Shown: piece after piece, positions 6,718 through 7,250 of the stretch
Position numbering within the stretch: position 1 is the stretch's first letter
Layout of the letters: the number at the start of each line of letters is the position of its first letter
From: a virus
Virus genome (UHGV): UHGV-0140083
DNA length: 30,056 nt
Direction: 5' to 3' (one strand)
Made by a program: the position numbers and the translations under genes
The notes under the pieces: model-generated
Databases searched by the model: none
Told to the model about the DNA's origin: nothing
What the model saw: the letters and a program-made list of their open reading frames with translations, nothing else

Positions 6718-6791
6718 TTCATATCCATATCATGCACATACAGCAATCGCTCTATTCGTTTTTTTTCTTCCCATCTTTTGCCAATACGTGC

Positions 6792-6811
6792 TACTGTATA
6801 AATATACAGTA
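6792..6811. promoter_or_regulatory. LexA box (SOS operator)
   Basis: tactgtataaatatacagta: CTGT-N8-ACAG with near-perfect match to the E. coli LexA consensus TACTGTATATATATACAGTA; lies 20 bp upstream of the next ORF and overlaps AT-rich -10-like hexamers. Confidence 0.8.
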
Positions 6812-6830
6812 ACCCTATGGGAGGGATTTC

Positions 6831-7013
6831 ATGGTTGGCGAACATTTCAGCCGAACGCAGCAAAAGTGGGCTTGTGTGCAATTTATTGCCGAGGTATCTC
6901 TGATTGCAAACTGCAAGCCATCAGACTTAAAGCTCGCGCTCACTCTCATTGCAGACCTAGCAAACAGCGAAAATAACGAAACCGAAGATGATAATTTTTA
7001 TAAGGCTGATTAG
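6831..7013 (+). CDS. LexA-controlled small protein, candidate SOS-induced antirepressor (Tum-like role by position)
   Basis: 60-aa ORF immediately downstream of the LexA box, SD gggaggga before the ATG. The functional assignment is from gene position in 186-like phages, not sequence recognition. Confidence 0.45.
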   Translation: MVGEHFSRTQQKWACVQFIAEVSLIANCKPSDLKLALTLIADLANSENNETEDDNFYKAD

Positions 7014-7016
7014 ATT

Positions 7017-7250
7017 ATGAGAATCAATATCACGTTGGATAAAGAGCAAAAAATTAGTCAGACAACGTTGGATGCACTTGAGGCTGAGCTGTACCGCAAT
7101 CTTCAACCTATTTACCCAAAGACTGCTATCCGCATTCGTAAGGGCTCAGCTAATGGCGTTGAGCTAAGCGGTTTGAAACTGGACGAAGATAAAAAACGAG
7201 TGATAGAAATCATGCAGCAGGTATGGGAGGACGATAGCTGGCTGCATTAA
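7017..7250 (+). CDS. dinI: DinI-like protein
   Basis: 77-aa product MRINITLDKEQKISQTTLDALEAELYRNL...IEIMQQVWEDDSWLH resembles the DinI family in length and N- and C-terminal motifs; downstream of the LexA box. Confidence 0.75.
   Translation: MRINITLDKEQKISQTTLDALEAELYRNLQPIYPKTAIRIRKGSANGVELSGLKLDEDKKRVIEIMQQVWEDDSWLH

Follow-up and report, generated by a model that had tools for sequence, protein, structure and literature searches.

A split tum gene of the phage 186 type as the probable SOS-induction operon of a P2-like prophage

In coliphage 186 the product of the tum gene is a LexA-controlled antirepressor which binds the CI repressor and keeps it off the operators, and the second half of this protein resembles DinI (Lemire et al. 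2011, PMC3121763). The p95-tum module was also used by Murchland et al. (2020, PMC7708051), with Tum sequestering CI after LexA de-repression of the p95 promoter. Passages of the former article describe how a stop codon divides the tum genes of PSP3 and Fels-2, and they ascribe the antirepressor activity to the upstream one of the two genes in PSP3. Null mutations of lexA are not tolerated by strain LT2, because Fels-2 becomes induced (PMC8072944). Moreover, in DuoHS, a P2-like phage of Escherichia coli HS, the deletion of a gene called "tum" (ECHS_RS04495) or a lexA(Ind-) background abolishes induction by mitomycin C, and it has been shown experimentally in this way that a split, stand-alone Tum is required for the induction of DuoHS (Phollow paper, 2025, PMC12055606). 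The locus described here is found in the virus genome UHGV-0140083, of which a stretch of 30,056 bp (the window) was analysed. Its segment 6768-7250 is very probably the SOS-induction operon of a prophage and a split form of the tum gene of phage 186, composed of a gene for a protein of 60 amino acids (aa), tumA, and a gene of the DinI family, tumB. Sequence features, homologies and conserved context were computed here; LexA binding, contact between TumA and CI and the consequences for induction are extrapolated from the published work on 186, PSP3, Fels-2 and DuoHS.

The phages PSP3 (Eganvirus PsP3), SW9, SEN1, SI22, Midge, RCIP0057 and vB_EcoM-613R3 (hereafter 613R3) share with the window the order tumA-tumB, the LexA box, the in-frame TAG junction and the place after replication gene A. 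The TumA proteins of these PSP3-type relatives are 98.3-100% identical to that of the window, and the CI architecture with two helix-turn-helix (HTH) domains is likewise in common. At the nucleotide level the early region is 79-91% identical to PSP3, SW9, SEN1, Midge, RCIP0057 and 613R3, and the tum region 93-94% identical to SI22, SW9, SEN1 and PSP3; the locus was matched in 81 of 5,426 complete E. coli genomes, the best match having 99.7% identity. With coliphage 186 the locus has in common its place after gene A, a LexA-repressed promoter/operator which aligns base for base, a presumed CI target of the same family and both halves of Tum, the N-terminal antirepressor domain being homologous to TumA and the C-terminal DinI-like domain to TumB. 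However, 186 Tum is one polypeptide of 146 aa, with extra internal starts, and the window has two separate genes. The layout of the DuoHS locus is also similar, as after gene A a LexA box stands ahead of a stand-alone open reading frame (ORF) of 62 aa, annotated "hypothetical protein", followed 10 nucleotides (nt) later by a DinI-like gene of 77 aa. It differs in the very distant sequence of its Tum, which matches phrog_698 and more weakly phrog_1993 and is related to TumA by hhalign (E 4e-5) with no BLASTP match, and in being paired with a short CI of 189 aa. The module is an ordinary instance of a system already known from the PSP3 annotation and from the literature. No paper was found which uses the words TumA and TumB together.

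An earlier reading of this stretch, made from the letters without database searches (the sequence-only reading), had placed a near-consensus LexA operator upstream of a 60-aa ORF, with a DinI-like gene 3 bp further on and the whole module directly after replication gene A. All three observations were borne out (Table 1). The operator TACTGTATAAATATACAGTA agrees with the palindromic consensus of enterobacterial LexA, TACTGTATATATATACAGTA, at 19 of 20 positions, with one mismatch, and is self-complementary at 18 of 20. It is the sole match in the window when up to three mismatches are allowed, and none of 100 dinucleotide-preserving shuffles contained a match. The looser pattern CTGT-N8-ACAG also occurs once in the window, at the same box, but 0.43 occurrences are expected and this pattern alone is not significant. 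The box is the same in PSP3 and 613R3 and is identical to the 186 box at 17 of 20 positions. The arrangement of box and ORF is not due to chance; PSP3, 613R3 and 186 all keep it, and so do P2-like prophages at a much greater distance. A second CTGT-N8-ACAG, lying inside the DUF2511 gene in PSP3 and 613R3 (L004 1515-1530; L005 1441-1456), is probably a chance occurrence, since nothing corresponds to it in the window.

The module starts 74 bp past the gpA stop, and the tumA ATG lies 19 nt past the end of the LexA box. The interval of 113 bp that separates tumA from gene A can be aligned with the p95 region of 186, whose -35, -10 and LexA site are annotated (NC_001317). The promoter was placed by this homology because a generic sigma-70 scan did not detect one ahead of tumA, and the predicted -10 hexamer falls within the LexA operator. 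Upstream of the promoter there is also a block of 21 bp (6723-6743, + strand), ATCCATATCATG.ACATACAG, which is invariant in the window, PSP3, 613R3 and 186 while the bases flanking it diverge; it is not a LexA box.

Table 1. Features of the prophage early region and of the tum module (positions in the 30,056-bp window)
Feature	Position	Strand	Description
Integrase gene	173-1222	-	ORF map, family matches
DUF2511 gene, 112 aa	1247-1585	-	Between int and cI
cI, immunity repressor of 281 aa	1595-2440	-	Pfam Phage_CI_repr and Phage_CI_C
Genes after cI			Gene at the Apl position, then CII, Fil, DUF5347, DUF2732, TraR-like zinc finger, gpA
Replication gene A (gpA)	4495-6717	+	PF05840, E 5.5e-130
p95-type promoter, predicted	6768-6797	+	By homology to 186: -35 TTCCCA 6768-6773, -10 TACTGT 6792-6797, 18-nt spacer
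LexA operator (SOS box) TACTGTATAAATATACAGTA	6792-6811	+	19/20 to consensus, overlaps the -10 hexamer
Shine-Dalgarno GGGAGGG for tumA	6819-6825	+	Read from the sequence; 5 nt before the ATG
tumA, 60 aa, putative antirepressor	6831-7013	+	ATG at 6831, TAG ending at 7013; homologue of the N-terminal half of 186 Tum
tumB, 77 aa, DinI family	7017-7250	+	Pfam DinI; counterpart of the C-terminal half of 186 Tum and of its internally initiated short form
Hairpin of 14 bp	7257-7291	+	Three G-U pairs, no U-run; directly past the tumB stop, in the place taken in 186 by the partial terminator t95a
ORF of 69 aa, PSP3 gp37 homologue	7446-7655	+	phrog_11386, E 6e-48; PSP3 orf37 in the same place
Small conserved ORF	7699-7983	+	phrog_2454 over residues 31-94
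Genes after the tum module			Small ORFs, two-gene cargo, portal, terminase, head, lysis and tail genes

The protein encoded by tumA is 98.3% identical to PSP3 TumA (AY135486) and 100% identical to a 613R3 protein labelled "UV induction of prophage"; over the 183 nt of the gene there are two DNA differences from PSP3 and none from 613R3. The PSP3 record AY135486 annotates its tumA as "similar to 5' end 186 tum; UV induction of prophage". The identity between TumA and the N-terminal domain of 186 Tum is about 25-30%. Among the PHROG profiles TumA matches phrog_1993 (E 1e-31), and the same profile is matched over its whole length by residues 1-61 of 186 Tum (E 2e-23). When given a diverse family alignment, hhalign paired residues 10-59 of TumA with residues 8-58 of 186 Tum over 51 columns, with a probability of 90% and E 1.7e-6. 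In addition, the Smith-Waterman score of the two proteins is 60, against 21.7 +/- 4 for shuffled sequences (z about 9.5; 0 of 10,000 reached 60), and both proteins keep the motif spacing V..IA - 7 residues - C - 7 residues - AL.LIA[DE][LI]A. Judged by these similarities, the 60-aa protein is a member of the Tum-type antirepressor family, together with PSP3 TumA and the N-terminal domain of 186 Tum.

The sequence-only reading had seen no likeness to Tum and supposed that a different antirepressor may be encoded here, which these results contradict, whereas its broader proposal of an SOS module, in which a LexA-controlled small ORF encodes an antirepressor of CI and is accompanied by a DinI-like gene, is supported by the sequence comparisons. 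It was also right that the protein is much shorter than Tum (60 against 146 aa). This length is explained by the split, because the ORFs of 60 and 77 aa correspond to the two halves of the 146-aa Tum of 186, divided by an in-frame TAG.

No family model for TumA was found in Pfam, NCBIfam or PADLOC. Its PHROG family is labelled 'unknown function', and in RefSeq and most phage records the protein is called "hypothetical protein". With the 60-aa ORF as query, tblastn over 50,697 phage records failed to reach 186, and a profile search of the sequences in PDB gave spurious helical matches only and no solved homologue by sequence. The model of TumA made by AlphaFold2 with the family alignment is a two-helix hairpin (helices 8-25 and 30-53) with a mean predicted local distance difference test (pLDDT) value of 80, rising above 90 across the conserved core.

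The second gene of the module encodes a clear DinI relative. TumB matches the Pfam family PF06183 (DinI) with E 6e-23 and 81.4 bits against a cutoff of 24.2, over positions 2-63 of the 63 of the profile, and phrog_189 with E 2e-29. It is 47% identical to residues 71-145 of 186 Tum. PSP3 TumB, annotated in AY135486 as "similar to dinI and 3' end of 186 tum", shares about 96% identity with it, the two having 3 differences in 77 residues. It also matches the DinI of the E. coli host (PDB 1GHH) over its full length (residues 1-75, E 7e-9), and both genes lie under a LexA box. However, TumB is phage-borne and its score does not indicate orthology to host dinI, as it reaches 51.8 bits against a cutoff of 111 for the NCBIfam equivalog NF007893. 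By these scores TumB is a phage-borne paralogue and not the host dinI. Membership of this family would imply that TumB binds the RecA filament and modulates its coprotease activity.

The following sequence of events can be proposed. In an undamaged lysogen the host LexA would sit on the operator, over the -10 of the p95-type promoter, and tumA-tumB would be silent, as the sequence and the example of 186 indicate. Upon DNA damage RecA would become active, LexA would cleave itself and tumA-tumB would be transcribed, which has been shown in 186 and DuoHS. TumA would then bind CI and sequester it from its operators, an action shown with 186 Tum and reported of TumA from PSP3. CI would stay uncleaved, and the derepression of the early lytic promoter would lead to excision and lytic growth. 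TumB, from the same transcript, would be a DinI-type binder of the RecA filament and would probably tune how strong the SOS signal is or how long it lasts. Distant relatives, described below, lack it, and together with the dinI deletions in the Gifsy prophages this suggests that it may be dispensable for the switch itself. The Gifsy systems of Salmonella (GfoA/GftA) are alike in having a LexA-controlled operon with a small antirepressor and a DinI homologue (also irsA homologues), in which the repressor is sequestered and not cleaved (PMC3121763). They differ in belonging to lambdoid phages, in the reversed gene order with dinI first and in their presumably unrelated families of antirepressor and repressor.

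The presumed target of TumA, by analogy with 186, is CI. The CI of the window has two tandem CI-type HTH domains (Phage_CI_repr in two stretches, E 5e-47) and a C-terminal domain of the 186 type (Phage_CI_C, E 7e-19); its ORF extends mechanically to a GTG at 2629, the likely start being the ATG at 2440. The 186 repressor has one HTH in 192 aa, whereas that of the window has two in 281 aa, and the identity between them is 32% over HTH2 and the C-terminal domain. The closest CI is that of SW9 (91%). The S24 peptidase family, which comprises the autocleaving domains of LexA and lambda CI, is absent among the Pfam matches of the window CI.

Several points weigh against the interpretation of the segment as a tum-type induction operon. 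BLASTP gives no match between TumA and 186 Tum, and their homology is carried by the profiles and the shuffle test. The promoter hexamers, positioned by homology alone, match the consensus poorly. The extra HTH of the window CI in comparison with 186 CI may change the contact surface, and the antirepressor activity of PSP3 TumA goes back, in the passages of PMC3121763 that deal with it, to a personal communication cited second-hand. The part of TumB in induction may be questioned by analogy with the Gifsy prophages, in which non-polar deletions of the dinI homologue left induction unaffected (PMC3121763). One alternative makes use of two of these points, the double-HTH architecture of CI unlike that of 186 and the source of the published support for PSP3 TumA; it holds that the module is SOS-controlled but that TumA acts on RecA, LexA, TumB or a co-resident element, the prophage being induced by another route. 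We consider it very unlikely, given that the window CI is without the S24 peptidase family and ends in the 186-type Phage_CI_C domain, that in 186 Tum the domain homologous to TumA makes direct contact with CI (PMC3121763), that genes like tumA accompany a CI of the 186/PSP3 type wherever the CI region was recovered, and that there is no second LexA box in the window.

The junction between the two genes raises the question of a broken gene. The start of tumB lies 3 nt past the stop of tumA, and both are in one reading frame with TAG ATT between them (7011-7019), the same as in PSP3 and 613R3 (L002 2812-2820 in the latter), so that read-through would yield a fused Tum of 139 aa similar to that of 186. 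This would fit a 186-type tum broken by a nonsense mutation, that is, a pseudogene in a prophage which is non-inducible or inducible solely via amber read-through. The survey of homologues speaks for the split form as the rule. By a word-indexed search, homologues of TumA were found in 208 clusters at 90% identity, spread over the Enterobacteriaceae, several UniRef clusters bearing the name TumA, and the best 120 of the 208 are all unfused; 107 of these 120 have 59-63 aa and the rest have mostly longer called N-termini. The core KWACVQFIAEVSLIANCKPSDLKLAL.LIADLA is nearly invariant. An exhaustive HMMER profile search gave 34 representatives at 50% identity, essentially all stand-alone and with no fused Tum-DinI protein among them, although this profile was made of close TumA homologues and is too narrow to reach 186 Tum, and hence unfit for counting fused forms. 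Two HMMER matches of 109 and 137 aa were rejected as fused forms, being mis-called extensions.

Three more distant homologues of TumA, P0131, P0138 and P0145, were found after gpA in P2-like prophages, with 37%, 36% and 34% identity to the TumA of the window in the full-length alignment; by pairwise alignment the TumA of the P0138 locus is 35% identical to that of the window. Each of the three has a TACTGT-N8-ACAGTA box (one with CTGG) 20-40 bp upstream of the tumA homologue, and at none of the three loci is there a DinI gene downstream of it. Those of the distant loci with a fully recovered early region (L013 and L014, and also L011) encode a CI of the same type, of 286-287 aa. In 613R3 (L002 2632-3048), moreover, tumA is identical to that of the window at the DNA level and tumB resembles the C-terminal half of 186 Tum, which suggests that the two genes meet at a recombination joint and that the DinI half is exchanged as a module. 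From these comparisons we conclude that the LexA box and tumA form the conserved functional unit, to which tumB is an exchangeable accessory, and that the fused arrangement of 186 is the less common form among the sequences reached; this argues against a pseudogene. A broken gene is also difficult to reconcile with the own ATG of tumB, which sits exactly where the 186 record annotates the internal GTG start of the short Tum form, with the two genes behaving as separate modules in 613R3, with PSP3 being reported as UV-inducible and with the loss of induction upon deletion of the stand-alone tum in DuoHS (PMC12055606), and we regard it as extremely improbable. The chance is just as slight that TumA has no kinship with Tum and is an antirepressor which merely occupies the same position, as the silence of BLASTP and tblastn towards 186 Tum and the missing Pfam and NCBIfam models might suggest, since it and 186 Tum both match phrog_1993 over the whole profile, the hhalign and Smith-Waterman results and the motif spacing agree with this, and the flanking promoter and DinI half are clearly homologous to those of 186.

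According to the ORF map and the Pfam matches, the gene order int-cI-apl-cII-fil-...-A-tum-cargo-Q/P... is that of the PSP3/186 group, and CI (PF07022 and PF16452), CII (PF06892) and Fil are all encoded in the window alongside gpA; on this basis, and by its nucleotide similarity to members, the source element is identified as a complete P2-like prophage of this group (Peduoviridae, Eganvirus-like). Rfam and tRNA scans of the 30,056-bp window gave no matches. An antisense ORF of 193 aa (6300-6881) and an ORF of 135 aa (6569-6976) are probably spurious, as judged on their overlap with gpA or tumA alone. The DUF2511 gene is kept in PSP3 (gp28) and its label in the Midge record is putative periplasmic protein; we take it as probably a 'moron' of lysogenic conversion that is expressed along with cI.

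Downstream of tumB no canonical intrinsic terminator was found by a terminator scan. The hairpin that follows the gene is present in both the minimum-free-energy and the centroid fold of 7240-7450 (z of the whole stretch -2.8 against shuffles), and it occurs at the same place in PSP3 and, with another stem sequence, in 613R3. It is possibly a weak terminator or a 3' stabiliser. In this the window differs from 186, where the canonical terminator t95a and orf97 are found downstream, in place of a hairpin without U-run and other small ORFs. The true start of the ORF at 7699-7983 is probably internal, because its phrog_2454 match begins at residue 31. Both this ORF and the one of 69 aa may be distal members of the SOS transcript, the latter possibly so by the sole analogy with 186 orf97 on the p95 transcript. 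Terminator-like hairpins are found past these two ORFs, at 8009-8032 and 8119-8143.

Between the tum region and the portal gene Q, at the cargo hotspot of P2-like phages, there is a cassette of two genes (8430-9976, + strand) encoding proteins of 274 and 241 aa; the PSP3-type relatives carry other cargo genes downstream of tum. Neither cassette gene has a family in Pfam, NCBIfam or PADLOC. By eye, the 241-aa protein appears to have hydrophobic, probably membrane-spanning N-terminal segments. The cassette is rare in phage records, with one match of 30% identity, and the same pair (62% and 45% identity) was found at the same position in a divergent prophage (L013 9477-11043) whose TumA is just 35% identical. 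The sequences suggest that the cassette is mobile, because the pair holds the same position in this divergent prophage, and that it may be a candidate anti-phage system.

The CI of the window is just 73% identical to that of PSP3, and the immunity specificity of the two phages probably differs, because the changes are mostly in the first HTH. Among seven PSP3-like phages whose TumA proteins are at least 98% identical (100% in the core), CI falls into three classes which differ mostly in HTH1 (about 60% identity), HTH2 being at least 92% identical and the C-terminal end also conserved. It can be speculated, with some reserve, that TumA serves several heteroimmune phages as a 'universal' antirepressor, docking on the invariant HTH2 or on the C-terminal end of CI. 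Should this doubtful proposal be correct, immunity specificity would be uncoupled from induction specificity and TumA could cross-induce heteroimmune relatives in polylysogens, in parallel with the trans-acting Gifsy antirepressors; the 60-aa helical hairpin would also be the minimal CI-inactivating domain.

No new biology is established by this locus, and its contribution lies in modest refinements, namely that the stand-alone tumA and its LexA box are conserved while tumB is optional, and that TumA is invariant across heteroimmune classes of CI. Its practical value is for annotation, since TumA, with no model in Pfam or NCBIfam, goes under the label "hypothetical protein", and in a widespread group of prophages the key gene of induction is thus routinely overlooked. 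By prediction, the SOS response would induce the prophage through antirepression and not through repressor cleavage, which bears on its induction by DNA-damaging antibiotics.

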